DNA from: an uncultured Eubacteriales bacterium
Lineage (GTDB): Bacteria; Bacillota; Clostridia; Oscillospirales; Acutalibacteraceae
Assembly (NCBI GenBank): GCA_964390295.1
Contig: CAYMHR010000003.1
Location: 27,514-91,513 of the forward strand
Length of the DNA stretch: 64,000 nt
Direction: 5' to 3'
Part shown: one piece after another, positions 3,736 through 26,374 of the stretch
Position numbering within the stretch: the stretch's first letter is position 1
How the letters are laid out: every line of letters starts with the position of its first letter
Notes under the pieces: generated by a model
Seen by the model: only the letters and a program-made list of their open reading frames with translations
What the model was told of the DNA's origin: nothing
Databases searched by the model: none
Position numbers and translations under genes: made by a program

Positions 3736-5132
3736 TGGGTATGGAATTGTCGATGAAGGCTCTTGCCGCAATTCGGCGTGAGCAGATGTTGCCTCCCGGC
3801 ACCGCTGTGGTCGTGGGGCTTTCCGGCGGTGCCGATTCCGTGGCGCTGTTGCATCTGTTGCTGTCCTTGCGGGAGGAGCTTTCGCTGTCTGCGGTCACGG
3901 CGGTCCACGTCAACCACGGCTTGCGCGGCGAGGAGGCTCTGCGCGATCAACGCTTTGTCGAGCGGTTGTGCGAGCAGTGGCAGGTTCCGCTGACGGTGCA
4001 TGGCTGTGACGTGGCGGCGCTGGCGGTCGAGCAGCATTGCGGCACCGAAGAAGCCGGTCGGATCGTCCGCTATCGCCTGCTGGAGCAGGCGGCGGATGCC
4101 TGGCCGTCGTCCCGGATCGCTACGGCACACACGGCCAGCGATAACGTGGAAACGGTGTTGTTGCACCTGTGCCGCGGCAGTGGCTTGCACGGCTTGGCGG
4201 GAATTCCGCCGGTGCGTGGTCGCGTGGTTCGCCCTTTGATTGATTGCACGCGTGCCGAGATCGAGGCTTATTGCTTGAAAAACGGGTTATCCTATATGAC
4301 CGACAGCACCAACGCCGATCCGACTTACGCACGCAACCGTGTTCGTCATCGGATCGTACCGGAGTTGAAAGCTATCAATCCGCAGGTCGAAACGGCGATC
4401 GCCCGCACGATCCGGCGCGCCGCCGAATGGGATGCCGACGTTACCGAACGGGCACAGGCGTTGCTGAACGAGGCACGCCGTAGTGCCGATACGTATAGCC
4501 GATCCGTTCTGTGCCATGCGGAAGCTGCCGTACAGGCGACGGCGTTGCGGCTGCTGCTGGGCGAACGCGGCGATCAGCGCGGCAGTGAGGTGCAAATTCG
4601 CCGTGCCCTTCGTCTGTTGGAGCGGGGCGGTGCCGTGACGGTCTCCGGTGCTCGACAGTTGACGATTCGTGGGGATACGGTGTGTCTGTCGGTGCCGTCG
4701 GCGGCACTGCCGCCGTTTCGGTTCGAACTGTCCGGCCCGGAAGCGACGTGGTCGGTGGGGGAGGATCATTGGTGCTTGCACCGCCTGTCCCGTCGGGAAT
4801 ATGAACAAAAACTGAATATTTCAAAATTTGTGTTTGCAAATGCGTTGGATTATGATAAGATAAATGGTAGTTTGTACGTTCGTCAGCGTGAGCCGGGCGA
4901 TGCGTTCCACCCTTGTGGGCGCGGTTGCGGAAAAAGCTTGAAAAAGCTGTTGAACGAAGCGGCCGTTCCGCCGGCAGAGCGGGATGCTATTCCGGTTTTG
5001 TGCGATGCCGACGGGATCGTTTCCGTAGTAGGCTTTGGGTGCGATGAGCGCGTCCGCATTACCGAAACGACGACAAACGTGTTATGGATGGAAAAAACGG
5101 AGGGTAAAAACAATGGCTTCGATGTACGATGA
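3732..5132 (+). CDS. tilS: tRNA(Ile)-lysidine synthase
   Basis: PP-loop motif SGGADS. The start overlaps the dnaB stop (ATGA). tilS-hpt-ftsH synteny. The exact start is uncertain (3732 or 3741). Confidence 0.88.
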   Translation: MMGMELSMKALAAIRREQMLPPGTAVVVGLSGGADSVALLHLLLSLREELSLSAVTAVHVNHGLRGEEALRDQRFVERLCEQWQVPLTVHGCDVAALAVEQHCGTEEAGRIVRYRLLEQAADAWPSSRIATAHTASDNVETVLLHLCRGSGLHGLAGIPPVRGRVVRPLIDCTRAEIEAYCLKNGLSYMTDSTNADPTYARNRVRHRIVPELKAINPQVETAIARTIRRAAEWDADVTERAQALLNEARRSADTYSRSVLCHAEAAVQATALRLLLGERGDQRGSEVQIRRALRLLERGGAVTVSGARQLTIRGDTVCLSVPSAALPPFRFELSGPEATWSVGEDHWCLHRLSRREYEQKLNISKFVFANALDYDKINGSLYVRQREPGDAFHPCGRGCGKSLKKLLNEAAVPPAERDAIPVLCDADGIVSVVGFGCDERVRITETTTNVLWMEKTEGKNNGFDVR

Positions 5133-23808: not shown

Positions 23809-24435
23809 GTGAAAAACTATCATATCCACCTCATTCGACACGGCATGACCGAAGCCAACGAGAAAGGCTTGTATATTGGAACGACCGATTTGCCGCTGTC
23901 TGCAACCGGCTTGCGCGATCTGTTAAACAAAAAGCAGGAGGCGCGTTATCCGTCAGCCACGCGGTTTTACGTCAGTCCGTTGCTGCGGTGTCGGCAAACT
24001 TTGGAAGTGCTGTATCCGGGGTGTGAACCGACCGAAATGCCCGGCCTCTCCGAGTGCGATTTCGGCGCGTGGGAGGGGAAAAGCGCCGCCGATCTTCAGC
24101 ACGACGAGGAGTTTCAGCGCTGGATCGCCGGCGAGCTGCCGGATATTCCGGGCGGCGAAGCAACGGCGGATTTTCAAAGCCGCGTAATGGCGGCGTTTGA
24201 AGCGTTGGTAGAGGACGCCATGAAGCACGGAGATACCGATACCGTCGTTTGTACTCACGGCGGCGTCATCATGATGATCATGGCGGCTTACGCCTTGCCG
24301 CGCGCCGATCTGTCGGCGTGGGCCACCGAAGGCGGCTGTGGTTTTACACTTCGTATTACCCTGACACTGTGGATGCGGGAGCCTGTCGCGGAAGCGGTAG
24401 ATTACGTGCCGCTGATTCCCGATCGTCAAAATTGA
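23809..24435 (+). CDS. histidine phosphatase family protein (phosphoglycerate mutase-like)
   Basis: IHLIRHGMTEANE (RHG motif). GTG start after GAGGAA. Confidence 0.8.
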   Translation: MKNYHIHLIRHGMTEANEKGLYIGTTDLPLSATGLRDLLNKKQEARYPSATRFYVSPLLRCRQTLEVLYPGCEPTEMPGLSECDFGAWEGKSAADLQHDEEFQRWIAGELPDIPGGEATADFQSRVMAAFEALVEDAMKHGDTDTVVCTHGGVIMMIMAAYALPRADLSAWATEGGCGFTLRITLTLWMREPVAEAVDYVPLIPDRQN

Positions 24436-24485
24436 GAGAACGGTGGGTCGCACAGCGTCTCCTGCGGTTGTTCTACTTGCCAAAA

Positions 24486-24520
24486 AGCGTCCGACGTCGT
24501 GCGACGTCGGACGCTTCTGC
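24486..24520. terminator. bidirectional intrinsic terminator, with the better U-tract on the minus strand
   Basis: AGCGTCCGACGTCG / CGACGTCGGACGCT stem. The minus-strand RNA continues with UUUUUG. On the + strand TTTT starts 6 nt after the stem. Confidence 0.85.
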
Positions 24521-24532
24521 GTTTTCATTTGT

Positions 24533-24717
24533 CCCGCTCTGCCGTAATATTCTCCGGATAACCTGCTACTATATCGTTCGCAGGTGGGTGTCTGCCCACA
24601 AGGTTCACGCTCCCTTCGTCCCAACGGGTGGGGAGGTCTGCAATCCGCTTGCGGAGCCAAGCTCCCGTATTCCAAGTGTAGTAGGGTTATAAGAGAATGG
24701 TCCGCGTACAGAGCAGG
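24533..24717 (-). ncRNA. candidate ~185-nt structured RNA (extended closing helix with a multi-hairpin core), class unknown
   Basis: Four co-linear helices: CCCGCTCTG/CAGAGCAGG, ATTCTC/GAGAAT, ATAACC/GGTTAT and CTACTA/TAGTAG. They enclose GC-rich hairpins. No ORF. Strand is inferred from a G-U pair and the terminator U-tract. Confidence 0.4.
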
Positions 24718-24726
24718 AGCCGGTCG

Positions 24727-25032
24727 TTATTGCTCCTCGGTTTCTTCGATCTCGTACAGATCGGCCAGGCGTTCTTCAAAGATACCGGCGATTTCTTCAA
24801 ATTCGTCGTCATCCTCAATGGGAAGCAGCAGGTCTTCGCCGTTTTCCTCTTTGACCGTTAAGATGACCAGCTCGCCGTCGTCGTTGATCAGATCGGCCGG
24901 GTTATCGTATACCGGGATTAACGCCACGTAGCGGCCGTCATCGGTTTCGATGGCATCCAGGACTTCAAATTGATGCTGATTTCCCTCATCGTCCACCACG
25001 GTGACCAAATCGTTTCCATATTCTTCCGACAT
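24727..25032 (-). CDS. DUF1292 family protein
   Basis: Small acidic protein with the pattern VTVVDDEGNQHQFEVLDAIETDDGRYVALIP typical of DUF1292. Confidence 0.85.
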   Translation of the reverse strand: MSEEYGNDLVTVVDDEGNQHQFEVLDAIETDDGRYVALIPVYDNPADLINDDGELVILTVKEENGEDLLLPIEDDDEFEEIAGIFEERLADLYEIEETEEQ

Positions 25033-25178
25033 AGGTATATCTCCTTTCTTTCACACCAATAGCGTGCTTTCGCTCTTACTATATTACCCTGTTTTTCAGC
25101 TTTCGTCAAGCAAAAAGTGCCGAAGGAAGGCGGTTCAAAAAAAGTTCACGAAAAGACGAAAAAAGTTCATCAAAAGTA

Positions 25179-25207
25179 TTGACAAGGGTGTGCGGTTGTG
25201 GTATAGT
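25179..25207 (+). promoter_or_regulatory. strong sigma-A promoter of the TSUP leader
   Basis: TTGACA, 17 nt spacer, TATAGT with TG at -15/-14. Two A-tract+GTTCA repeats lie 21 bp apart just upstream. Confidence 0.75.
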
Positions 25208-25213
25208 AAAGAT

Positions 25214-25616
25214 GACAAAAGGATGGACAGAACGAGACGTACACAAGAGGAGTGAGTCCCGTGCATCGTTAAGATCAGGCATTCCCCAATCCATAACAAA
25301 GGATGAGTCCCATGGTTCAAGATTCACGGCTTCAGTGAATGCGGCTTTGGCGATGAAAGGGTTAGGTGAGTCCAATGGGCCACACAGTAAAACCGCGATC
25401 TTACTATCCTAATACAGAAAAGGTGAGTCCCGTGCGCTAACGTGCACTTTGATAGGTTCAACTTGTTATAGATTCCTTTTGATTCCTTCCTTCAATTCAT
25501 TTGTCATAGGTTTAGATTTCCTTTACATACGTTGCACGTCGTGGTCCGGAGGCCTGCTCCAGGTCTCCGGATTTTTGCATATTTTTCTCCGCTCGCACCC
25601 ACACTATCCGGGGGAG
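25214..25616 (+). promoter_or_regulatory. ~400-nt leader with four TGAGTCC modules, a CU-rich tract and a terminator (attenuator candidate)
   Basis: TGAGTCC occurs at 25253, 25304, 25367 and 25424. Each copy has GG upstream and a start codon one nt downstream. See findings. Confidence 0.6.
25545..25577 (+). terminator. intrinsic terminator inside the TSUP leader
   Basis: TCCGGAGGCCTG-CTC-CAGGTCTCCGGA (12 bp, one G-U pair) followed by TTTTTG. Confidence 0.85.
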
Positions 25617-25622
25617 ATGCAA

Positions 25623-25982
25623 ATGAAAAGGCGTACTCAATATACAATCACCGGGGCGCTGGCCGGCACGGCCAACGGCCTGTTCGGAGCCGGTGGTGGT
25701 TTGTTTTTGGTGCCGCTGTTCACTTGGTGGCTCGGCATGGAGCCGAAGCGCGCGTTTGCGACCTCGGTAGCGGTGATTTTTTTGTTGTCACCGGTGTCGT
25801 TGTTGGTGTTTTGGCTACACGGTGATCTGAACCTTGGCGGCACGTGGCCCTATTTGGTCGGTGGAGCACTGGGCGGCATTCTTTCCGGTCGCTTGTTCTC
25901 CAAGCTGTCCGTCACCTGGCTGCGCCGCCTGTTTGGGGCGCTGTTGTTATACGGCGGTGTTCGGGCGGTGATGCTGTGGTAA
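25623..25982 (+). CDS. half-size TSUP (TauE/SafE) family permease, N-terminal-type half
   Basis: GALAGTANGLFGAGGGLFLVPL motif and 4 predicted TM helices. ATG at 25623, 6 nt after GGGGGAG. The upstream part of ORF 25449 covers the terminator and is rejected. Confidence 0.75.
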   Translation: MKRRTQYTITGALAGTANGLFGAGGGLFLVPLFTWWLGMEPKRAFATSVAVIFLLSPVSLLVFWLHGDLNLGGTWPYLVGGALGGILSGRLFSKLSVTWLRRLFGALLLYGGVRAVMLW

Positions 25983-25984
25983 AG

Positions 25985-26374
25985 GTGATTGTCGCCATCG
26001 GCGTGGGTCTGCTGACCGGCATTTTAAGCGGAATGGGAATCGGCGGCGGCTCTTTGCTCATATTGTATTTAACCGCTGTGATCGGAACCGATCAATACGT
26101 TGCCGGCGGAATCAATTTGCTGTATTTTTTATGTTGTGCGCCCACGGCCTTGGCATCGCATATTCTCCACAAGCGATTGGAGTGGCAAGCGGTGCTGTGG
26201 TGCTCCCTGTCAGGCTTTGTTACGTCGCTGGGTGCGGCGTGGCTGGCATCACAGCTGAACACCGATTGGCTTCGCCGCGGATTCGGTGTGCTGTTGCTGT
26301 ACGTTGGCGCACGCGAGCTGTTTTGCAAAAAAGAAGGCCCTGCCACCGAAGAGGGGCAGGGCACAGGCCGTTGA
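25985..26374 (+). CDS. half-size TSUP (TauE/SafE) family permease, second half
   Basis: LTGILSGMGIGGGSLLILYL motif and 4 TM helices. The GTG lies 2 nt after the previous stop. Confidence 0.72.
   Translation: MIVAIGVGLLTGILSGMGIGGGSLLILYLTAVIGTDQYVAGGINLLYFLCCAPTALASHILHKRLEWQAVLWCSLSGFVTSLGAAWLASQLNTDWLRRGFGVLLLYVGARELFCKKEGPATEEGQGTGR

Follow-up and report, generated by a model that had tools for sequence, protein, structure and literature searches.

The tandem TGAGTCC element on the forward (+) strand of the window, the 64-kb stretch of DNA analyzed here, is probably an independent small-RNA gene of ~365 nt (roughly 25212-25577) that belongs to an undescribed Oscillospirales family and whose modules engage ribosomes. 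The element has the anatomy of a transcription unit of its own, is conserved, is independent of the neighboring TSUP/TauE permease genes, has no conserved structure beyond its terminator, and bears in its repeated modules a signature of selection for start and stop codons. The modules would be bound and translated by ribosomes, presumably to the benefit of the cell.

Anatomy of the transcription unit

All of the features described here are on the + strand. A predicted σA-type promoter is located at 25179-25207, with TTGACA (25179-25184) and TATAGT (25202-25207) hexamers separated by a 17-nt spacer and a TG dinucleotide in the configuration TG-n-TATAGT. A promoter scan scored 11/12 matches to the pattern of TTGACA, 17-nt spacer, TATAAT and optional TG, which bore out the original prediction. 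Two UP-like A-tract and GTTCA repeats (25138-25155 and 25159-25176, within 25137-25176) lie 5′ of the -35 box, are spaced 21 bp apart as proposed, and proved to be 89% identical; A/T-rich tracts are present 5′ of the -35 box in every homologue in the alignment. The predicted promoter and the terminator of the small RNA are retained in all 18 small-form homologues, and the promoter is also kept in Ruminococcus-type relatives. Transcription is predicted to initiate near 25212-25215. A conserved 5′ RNA segment, GAUGACAAAAGGAUGGACAGAACGAGAC (25211-25238), was evident in homologue alignments and was aligned by nhmmer with the 5′ end of large Ruminococcus-type RNAs. The possibility that a 5′-terminal AUG acts as a leaderless start codon was discarded, as ACA occupies that place in homologue L089.

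The modules are followed by a poorly conserved 3′ tail (25441-25543) that includes CU-rich tracts, and then by an intrinsic terminator (25544-25577) that forms the 3′ end of the RNA. The terminator comprises a GC-rich hairpin of 12-13 bp (25544-25572; -22.9 kcal/mol) and U5, in agreement with the hairpin and T5 run first noticed ahead of the TSUP start. The equivalent hairpins in homologues have energies of -17.7 to -24.2 kcal/mol and are accompanied by a T-run, and the stem shows compensatory changes with GC, AU, GU and UA pairs in the same alignment columns. Three sets of terminator coordinates were corrected by hand; the terminator of L003 was placed manually. The σA promoter with its UP-like A-tracts would drive synthesis of the RNA and the terminator, acting constitutively, would end it. 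A 6S RNA gene is situated within the window at a distance of 500 bp from the element.

RNA families, structure and coding potential

The element had been considered to match no described RNA class, a view that the database comparisons sustain. An Rfam scan, which the original prediction had proposed as a check, matched the window element to no family in Rfam 15 at either the gathering or a permissive threshold, the best score being snoRNA noise with E = 3.3, and the Ruminococcus-type relatives were equally negative. No description of the RNA was found in the literature searched, which dealt with DUF1292, minigenes, start-stop ORFs, SD-like sponges and the catalogs of structured RNAs from microbiomes. 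RNAalifold analysis of 17 homologues recovered only the terminator (consensus energy of -3.8 kcal/mol), and the single-sequence fold of the element gave z = -1.27. A riboswitch or structured aptamer was ruled out because conserved covarying structure is absent except in the terminator. A tmRNA or tRNA-like RNA was excluded as ARAGORN detected nothing in 24400-26000 and Rfam was negative. Protein-coding ORFs at 25179-25412 (+) and 25106-25375 (-) were also rejected since their frames are not conserved in homologues: tblastn searches with the long ORFs produced a full-length match solely in L085, a strain that is 97% identical to the window sequence, and the other homologues yielded fragments in shifting frames.

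Tandem modules with start-stop reading frames

The heptamer TGAGTCC occurs on the + strand at 25253, 25304, 25367 and 25424, as originally reported. As the entire window contains only six copies (4.8 expected), a cluster of four in 172 nt can hardly be due to chance, and analysis of repeat families in the window extended the repeat to 13-17 nt. The mini-ORFs also are as they were first described. Module 1 (25247-25272) consists of GAGGAG-UGAGUCC-C-GUG followed by CAU CGU UAA (MHR*; 25261-25272), and this module is GUG, one codon and a stop in 16/18 small-form homologues. Module 2 (25298-25338), AAAGGA-UGAGUCC-C-AUG, opens an 8-codon frame (MVQDSRLQ*; 25312-25338); in relatives the frame has 2-3 codons, and AAG replaces the start codon in one subclade. 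Module 3 (25355-25440), GAAAGGG-UUA-GGUGA-G-UCC-A-AUG, begins a 21-codon ORF (25375-25440). Module 4 (25416-25440), AGAAAAGG-UGAGUCC-C-GUG CGC UAA, specifies MR* (25432-25440) and in most relatives has a start, one codon and a stop.

A logo built from 93 modules revealed the consensus of an A-rich tract, GGUGA, N, UCC, N and RUG. The GGUGA positions are retained in 78-91 and the UCC positions in 89-93 of the modules, and the sole variable core position is the base between them (G74, U13, A4, C2). The start codon is ATG in 60 modules and GTG in 24. Codon 2 is represented by 21 different codons, and a stop occupies the third codon in 49/93 modules (TAA 27, TGA 13, TAG 9). The module ORF is exactly two codons long in 49/86 modules compared to 6/86 in the +2 control frame, and three codons or fewer in 59/86 compared to 10/86. 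Read at the level of sequence, the modules have the attributes of minigenes, namely a start codon preceded at the proper distance by a ribosome-binding site and followed within 2-3 codons by a stop. That a stop comes after exactly one sense codon in 49/86 modules, with no variation in the stop other than between TAA, TGA and TAG, points to real ribosome loading on two-codon minigenes. The proposal that the modules are genuine ribosome-loading sites therefore gains support from both their anatomy and their evolutionary signature. A module-like GAGGAGUGAGUCCAAUC without a start codon is present in large RNAs, the 3′ copy of which has AUC. Together with the AAG in module 2, this startless form suggests that the core may also be read by a partner that is not an initiating ribosome, which weighs against the ribosome model. 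Module number ranges from 3 to 5 and has been changed by recombination between modules (L083; L202 and L102), behavior that fits a repeated binding unit. Spacings that are multiples of three are confined to the window and do not recur in the homologues.

GGAGTCC contexts had been pointed out at real start codons and do exist (14330 and 23709), but these are GGAG plus TCC and not the GGUGA-N-UCC module. The real genes of the window have GGAGG with varied spacers. The notion that the module is the generic ribosome-binding site of this genome was ruled out, as the GAGUCC spacer is no general feature of ribosome-binding sites here.

Distribution of the family

Sequence comparison shows the element to be conserved among certain gut Clostridia, and the family is one of Oscillospirales (Acutalibacteraceae, Ruminococcus and others). 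The family is defined by the tandem array of 3-5 modules. Relatives in Ruminococcus and other Oscillospirales occupy different gene contexts, and some of these RNAs reach ~850 nt and have a structured domain at the 5′ end. The Ruminococcus-type relatives are flanked on one side by a kinase gene and on the other by a radical-SAM gene in convergent orientation, an unrelated neighborhood, and the large forms have a covarying 5′ domain that the window RNA lacks. A metagenome search with the pattern of module 1, CTRA and module 2 produced no matches; a looser two-module pattern retrieved distant relatives among many chance or coding-repeat matches. No blastn match to plasmids or phages that would point to a mobile or phage origin was obtained, and 0/47 viral pattern matches fit the element HMM.

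Predicted pairing with 16S rRNA

GGTGA-G-TCC had been noted to be complementary, with one extra base, to the GGA/UCACC of the 16S rRNA 3′ tail. This complementarity is supported, and the extra base coincides with the variable core position. The predicted duplex with the 16S tail has a mean energy of -14.6 kcal/mol for the modules versus -12.0 kcal/mol for the ribosome-binding sites of real genes in the window, and for the purine tract of module 3 a duplex with all 16 nt of the 3′ tail is predicted to be possible, at -19.8 kcal/mol. Other considerations temper the model that the modules engage ribosomes. In thermodynamic ensembles the modules are slightly less open than the remaining RNA (unpaired probability of 0.40 versus 0.50, with 0/18 in favor), a result that appears neutral to negative for the model. 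For UCC to pair with G1529-A1531, the duplex would have to extend to the base of helix 45, which a ribosome may not tolerate, and futile cycles of initiation and termination on a high-copy RNA look costly and count against it also.

Alternative explanations

The element was originally interpreted as an ~400-nt attenuator leader of the TSUP/TauE pair, that is, a cis-acting 5′ leader in which ribosome occupancy of, or stalling on, the mini-ORFs, for example provoked by a translation inhibitor, sets the level of read-through at 25577. The element is co-oriented with and directly upstream of TSUP in 15/18 small-form loci, the terminator is only 45 nt from the TSUP start, and short uORFs with strong SD sequences precede the terminator, as in antibiotic-responsive attenuators of the lmo0919/vmlR type. 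Very short, strong-SD uORFs ahead of a terminator reportedly were recognized by Dar et al. in 2016 as the hallmark of such attenuators. Against this interpretation, a promoter-like motif, TGCATA-N17-CACACTA (25577-25606, +), lies outside the RNA between the terminator and TSUP. The motif is found upstream of TSUP genes in 24/86 loci compared to 0.7 expected, and 15 of these loci are without the element. We take the motif to resemble a forespore σF/σG promoter. The deletion in a close relative, L082, is clean and spans everything between the upstream A-tracts and the terminator, both included; TSUP and the proximal region, with the promoter-like motif, are intact there. In L016, L051 and L007 a 570-nt insertion with a gene on the opposite strand separates the element from TSUP, the motif being retained in L016, and the Ruminococcus family members face a convergent gene. 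The leader and the gene are not, in short, one obligatorily linked transcription unit. A search for an antiterminator was negative, as the best duplex with the 5′ arm of the terminator was no better than in shuffled sequences in 18/18 homologues (z of -1.7 to +0.9); there is no conserved alternative structure, nor any mutually exclusive antiterminator/terminator pairing coupled to a uORF. More than 100 nt of non-conserved sequence separate the last mini-ORF from the terminator downstream. The CU-rich tracts that were suggested to pair with the modules are present in the window, but recur only in the near-identical L085 and the pairing is not conserved. Thus, the separate TSUP motif, the deletion in L082, the three insertions, the missing antiterminator and the restriction of structure to the terminator together make attenuation very unlikely. 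Terminator read-through into TSUP may make a minor contribution.

The RNA might instead act in trans as a sponge or base-pairing RNA in which the repeated GGUGAGUCCC(R)UG binds a protein or seeds pairing with other RNAs and the start and stop codons are incidental or secondary, an explanation that has a small but real chance of being correct. A repeated short motif with variable spacers and copy number behind a strong promoter recalls CsrB/RsmZ, and the core persists without a start codon in some copies, such as module 2 of one clade, which has AAG instead, and the 3′ copy in the large RNAs, which has AUC. The UCCC inside the core also is reminiscent of the C-rich seeds described for Firmicute sRNAs (PMC2790875). 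However, the interchange of the three stop codons alone at codon 3, and of AUG and GUG alone at the start, is not predicted by a pure nucleic-acid binding motif, and sites complementary to the modules are not enriched in the window (15 versus 13.3 expected, four of which are the modules themselves). A CsrA sponge of the CsrB/RsmZ type in particular was ruled out: most modules have GGUGA, and therefore GGU rather than the GGA required by CsrA, which is found only in module 1 and in module 2 of the window, and no conserved hairpin presents the motif. The least probable of the alternatives is that the RNA is a small mRNA for one encoded peptide, such as the module-3 product MI(C/R)x(K/R)GFLKII of one subclade, with the other modules serving as enhancers or couplers. 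The length of the module-3 ORF is maintained in L028, L006, L016, L051 and L007, the changes between L006 and the others are mainly synonymous (GGA/GGT, TTT/TTC, CTC/CTG, ATC/ATT), and a related MTCKRIVLKI.. is encoded in module 2 of L008. Nevertheless, no peptide is conserved throughout the family: the window specifies MGHTVKPRSYYPNTEKVSPVR and relatives specify MGQVEERTPHS, MGR and others. Most module ORFs have only two codons, and the longer one coincides in several clades with a covarying hairpin, in which case constraint at the RNA level explains the ORF.

Possible mode of action and implications

If the preferred interpretation of an independent RNA that engages ribosomes is correct, each module would be a strong ribosome-binding site in which AGGUGA and UCC pair with the 3′ tail of 16S rRNA (GGA/UCACCU) and the variable base is bulged out. 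This pairing would set the start codon of the module in the P site. The ribosome would then make at most a di- or tripeptide and terminate before it has moved out of range of the Shine-Dalgarno contact. The small RNA would act by engaging ribosomes, 30S subunits or translation factors, whether by holding, cycling or sensing them, and neither through a folded aptamer nor through read-through into the TSUP genes. One elaboration, which is speculative and rather improbable, is that the RNA is the equivalent of 6S RNA for translation, namely an abundant decoy built from mimics of the initiation region that parks 30S subunits or 70S ribosomes through extended pairing with the 16S 3′ tail and thereby buffers free ribosomes. 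By analogy, synthesis of a di- or tripeptide from the mini-frame would be the release step, like pRNA synthesis on 6S RNA, and how the pool of free ribosomes is buffered would depend on how much initiator tRNA, charged tRNA, GTP or release factor is available. In the larger Ruminococcus form, the module array would be joined by a structured domain that serves as sensor or scaffold.

We know of no other bacterial RNA gene in which the conserved part is a series of ribosome-binding sites with two-codon frames. If the modules engage ribosomes, the RNA would represent a new mode by which an RNA acts on the translation machinery, through titration, parking or sensing, and this mode would be present in abundant gut Clostridia of humans and animals, including Ruminococcus. 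It would also provide a natural role for minigenes and start-stop units, which so far are known mainly as oddities or as artefacts with toxic effects. Because the GGUGA-N-UCC core is invariant, it provides a direct handle on how far an mRNA can pair with the 16S 3′ tail. Moreover, an annotation trap is corrected, as an apparently long regulated leader of a transporter operon is a separate gene.

Comparison with known systems

6S RNA is an open-promoter mimic for RNA polymerase, and CsrB and RsmZ carry repeated GGA sites for CsrA; these known RNAs are abundant. The element may be likened to both as a stand-alone RNA that would mimic the binding site of a core machine or regulator, and shares with the CsrB type a repeated motif with variable spacers and variable copy number. 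The mimicked site would differ in being a translation initiation region, with the ribosome as the presumed partner, and the GGA-in-loop arrangement of CsrA targets is lacking. To our knowledge, no described sponge or mimic RNA targets the translation initiation region. STAB-SD elements and 5′ stabilizers, exemplified by cryIIIA and the ermC leader, are SD-like sequences that bind 30S subunits without a protein product. These are single and located at the 5′ end of the mRNA that they protect, whereas the element is an array that includes start and stop codons and lacks a cargo mRNA. Like tmRNA and dual-function sRNAs (SR1, RNAIII, SgrS), the element is an RNA gene that holds a short frame, and the large Ruminococcus relatives add a structured domain; unlike them, it has several two-codon ORFs, no tRNA-like domain and no conserved peptide.

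Very short ORFs with strong ribosome-binding sites, placed in a non-coding transcript before an intrinsic terminator, are shared with attenuators (the lmo0919, vmlR, bmrB, erm and cat leaders) and with the E. coli start-stop sites uncovered by Ribo-RET (bioRxiv 10.1101/520783). In attenuators the uORFs overlap a terminator/antiterminator switch and control a downstream gene, whereas here there is no antiterminator, TSUP has its own promoter-like motif and relatives exist without a downstream gene. Ribosome cycling and peptidyl-tRNA drop-off on minigenes are reported from work on bar and Pth. The modules resemble the two-codon minigenes of phage lambda bar, axe-txe (PMC8708949) and the LEE1 leader (PMC3262186) in the succession of SD sequence, start codon, one or a few sense codons and stop, and the literature on such minigenes describes repeated ribosome cycling and peptidyl-tRNA drop-off. 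However, these minigenes are single, form part of phage or operon transcripts and show no conservation as minigenes, whereas the present modules occur in 3-5 copies with an invariant 13-nt core in what is predicted to be a dedicated, separately transcribed RNA across genera.

Organization of the DUF1292-TSUP intergenic region

The gap between the DUF1292 gene (24727-25032, minus strand) and the two half-size TauE/TSUP genes recognized by Pfam (25623-25982 and 25976-26374, plus strand) spans 590 nt and holds all the features of the original prediction. The observation was confirmed. Two A-tract/GTTCA repeats 21 bp apart precede a sigma-A promoter close to consensus (25179-25207; TTGACA, 17 nt, TG-n-TATAGT; 11 of 12 matches), and TGAGTCC is located at 25253, 25304, 25367 and 25424, the entire window possessing only six copies. 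Each of the four follows a purine-rich GG tract and precedes, after one base, a GTG or ATG codon that opens mini-ORFs of 3, 8, 21 and 2 codons, respectively. The terminator hairpin comprises 13 bp plus U5 (25544-25577). The element, a putative RNA gene of ~365 nt, produced no Rfam match at either curated or permissive thresholds, which fits the earlier view that it belongs to no described class. Because the modules are spaced in multiples of three (51, 63 and 57 nt), a spurious 77-codon ORF (25179-25412) arises in which every module reads x-E-S-x-x. This phasing is not seen in relatives (46/63/52, 48/61/52 and so on), and neither strand of the window element has a long ORF that is conserved outside a near-identical strain.

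A 6S (SsrS) RNA gene (24527-24722, minus strand; Rfam RF00013, 52.3 bits against a gathering score of 46.4) is positioned 5 nt past the DUF1292 stop codon and ~500 bp from the mini-gene RNA, and the three genes form a block that is conserved in relatives. Between the 6S gene and a histidine-phosphatase gene (plus strand) is a GC-rich 14-bp hairpin (24485-24516) bordered by A-runs and T-runs, probably a bidirectional terminator.

Conservation of the element and its modules

TSUP-orthologue loci were sampled from GTDB species representatives (80 loci) and supplemented through exact-protein look-ups. With the element HMM, 11 of the 80 loci and most of the closest added ones proved to carry the element ahead of TSUP, all TSUP-linked carriers being Acutalibacteraceae-type metagenome-assembled genomes. 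The repeated module recurs across 18 distinct homologues, which also retain the promoter, a 5′ segment (GAUGACAAAAGGAWAGAC..ACGAGA) and the position of the terminator hairpin; the inter-module stretches and the 100-nt tail are unconserved. Terminator stems diverge in sequence between homologues with pairing preserved by compensatory changes. Module number changes through recombination between modules: one variant (L083, 2300-2330) has three modules, one of which combines the module 2 SD and core with the module 3 ORF, apparently a deletion by recombination between repeats.

A logo was built from 93 non-identical modules, with the start-codon A set to position 0. In this logo an A-rich tract (-14 to -11) is followed by GGUGA at -10 to -6 (78, 88, 89, 90 and 91 modules), a variable base at -5 (G in 74, U in 13, A in 4, C in 2), UCC at -4 to -2 (89, 93 and 89), C, A or G at -1 (63, 22 and 7) and an ATG or GTG start codon (60 and 24). 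Codon 2 is drawn from 21 different codons, and in 49 modules a stop occupies codon 3 (TAA 27, TGA 13, TAG 9). The in-frame ORF has exactly two codons in 49 of 86 modules and ≤3 codons in 59, compared to 6 and 10, respectively, in the +2 control frame. Among orthologous modules AUG and GUG swap, the three stops interchange and the sense codon drifts freely, which indicates selection on initiation and termination rather than on a nucleotide motif. This signature suggests that the modules behave as translated two-codon mini-genes, and supports their earlier designation as genuine ribosome-loading sites.

The 16S rRNA 3′ tail, ...GGAUCACCUCCUUUCU, is universal in sequence. Module AGGUGA and UCC are complementary to this tail with a single variable base between them, as anticipated when GGTGA-G-TCC was described as its complement with one extra base; the base at -5 would form a bulge in the duplex. 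The predicted duplex averages -14.6 kcal/mol for modules versus -12.0 kcal/mol for 42 real ribosome binding sites in the window, and for window module 3 the predicted duplex can extend over all 16 nt of the tail (-19.8 kcal/mol). The module core is no house style of the genome, since real genes in the window rely on GGAGG with spacers unrelated to it. In predicted ensembles the modules are no more accessible than the remaining RNA (0.40 vs. 0.50 unpaired).

Relation to the TSUP genes and alternative readings

The original prediction regarded the element as a leader that controls TSUP transcription by attenuation. Five independent observations oppose this reading, which is decidedly unlikely. 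A separate bipartite motif, TGCATA-N17-CACACTA (25577-25606), separates the terminator from the TSUP start and also precedes TSUP genes of many genera; a strict pattern is present at 24 of 86 TSUP loci, versus 0.7 expected by shuffling, and no element at all accompanies it at 15 of these loci. Irrespective of the sigma factor, the motif belongs to TSUP's own promoter-proximal region. At L082, whose TSUP is 79% identical, the DUF1292-TSUP spacer is just 146 nt, the segment from A-tracts through terminator being gone entirely with both flanks intact. In three other species (L016, L051, L007), ~570 nt with an opposite-strand 54-aa ORF part the terminator from TSUP, the upstream region of which retains TTGCAC-17-CATATT and CACCCTAA. 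Duplexes of the terminator 5′ arm with upstream segments never beat shuffles (0 of 18 homologues; z -1.7 to +0.9), the best reaching -8 to -15 kcal/mol versus -18 to -25 kcal/mol for the terminators. Finally, RNAalifold of 17 homologues predicted the terminator as the only conserved helix (consensus energy -3.8 kcal/mol). For the window RNA alone, the predicted fold does not surpass shuffled controls (z = -1.27), and the CU-rich tracts proposed to pair with the modules are confined to the window and its 97%-identical relative.

That the RNA is instead a peptide-encoding mRNA is most improbable. An 11-residue module 3 peptide, MI(C/R)x(K/R)GFLKII followed by a stop, is kept in one subclade (L028, L006, L016, L051, L007) with mostly synonymous differences, and may serve there for arrest or as a leader peptide. 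At L008, a related peptide, MTCKRIVLKISSHQNL followed by a stop, is carried in module 2, not module 3. No peptide is common to the whole family and the longer ORFs of other clades overlap covarying hairpins. A sponge for a second reader of the motif, protein or RNA, has an outside chance: some copies lack a start codon (AAG or AUC) and still retain the core, whereas the interchange of starts and stops within their codon classes argues against a pure nucleotide motif.

Bacillus forespore sigma-F/G promoters have the consensus -35 GHATAR and -10 CATxHTA, which the TSUP motif resembles. The form TG(C/T)ATA-N17-18-CA(C/T)A(C/A)TA occurs just upstream of half-size TSUP/TauE pairs in many Oscillospirales genera (L012, L013, L017, L019, L036, L072, L082 and others). 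This likeness suggests that the transporters may be sporulation (forespore) genes. The inserted 54-aa ORF (L016 2410-2574, minus strand; also L051 and L007) reads MKPLKERLSITLDGDIIERVKVLAEEQDRSVSQYINLVLKSHLKRV.., comes with ~400 nt more and, judged by eye, would be ribbon-helix-helix/antitoxin-like.

Large and distant relatives

Metagenome contigs were scanned with a two-module DNA pattern that also gave many chance or coding-repeat matches, and true relatives were selected with the element HMM. In Ruminococcus callidus and Ruminococcus sp., hosts assigned from neighboring YlbF proteins, the RNA is ~850 nt long (L097 4672-5470, plus strand; also L152, L127, L202 and L122). It has the promoter type and a similar 5′ end to the small form near TSUP, three or four modules of the form AAAAGGUGA(G/U)UCCCAUG, one copy without a start codon (GAGGAGUGAGUCCAAUC) and a terminator. 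The modules are preceded by a 440-nt 5′ domain with 104 predicted pairs, 30 having compensatory changes in five sequences only, and the RNA appears to be a large structured RNA without a prior description. A Ser/Thr kinase gene flanks one side and a convergent radical-SAM gene the other, leaving no downstream gene to regulate. Four modules, each AUG-NNN-UAA, with GC-rich hairpins between them, are present in a "Clostridia bacterium" contig (L102), and three in a Ruminococcaceae/Oscillospiraceae contig (L111). Neither these nor the large form matched Rfam.

A module-like ribosome binding site, GGCGAGGUCCGAUG, in the large-form 5′ domain (L097 ~4795-4870; L122; L127; L202) opens a frame of 20-22 codons, MA(S/N/Q)EESQL(H/D)MLS..., that overlaps a conserved hairpin (ACAGC..GCUGU). 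No viral-contig pattern match scored with the element HMM, and blastn of plasmids and phages yielded zero matches. Two phage-like contigs without an HMM match (L200 8520-8640; L240 2900-3020, IMG/VR) have two mini-ORFs 64 nt apart, GGGGGTGATTCCAATG-AAT/GAT-TAC-TAA (MNY, MDY), that share the GGUGA-N-UCC-N-AUG design in another setting.

Proposed role and comparison with known systems

The best-supported reading of these comparisons is a stand-alone RNA whose working parts would be ribosome-loading sites. The consensus promoter with upstream A-tracts suggests that the RNA is probably abundant. A ribosome on a module would make only a di- or tripeptide and then terminate within reach of the SD contact, such that the RNA would act on, or by way of, the translation apparatus (holding, cycling or sensing it) and not in cis on TSUP.

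The element does not qualify as an attenuator, riboswitch, T-box or tmRNA on the defining features tested, and no description of it emerged from the literature searched or from a microbiome structured-RNA catalogue. Thus, the mini-gene RNA is apparently a real, conserved and undescribed kind of RNA gene. We know of no described RNA that mimics initiation regions. The architecture is similar to that of the sponge RNAs CsrB and 6S, but the modules do not fit the CsrA motif. The module sequences satisfy the sequence definition of minigenes such as lambda bar, axe-txe (PMC8708949) and LEE1 (PMC3262186), and resemble the start-stop units detected by Ribo-RET (bioRxiv 10.1101/520783). These minigenes and start-stop units are single, incidental and within other transcripts, unlike the arrayed modules of the mini-gene RNA.
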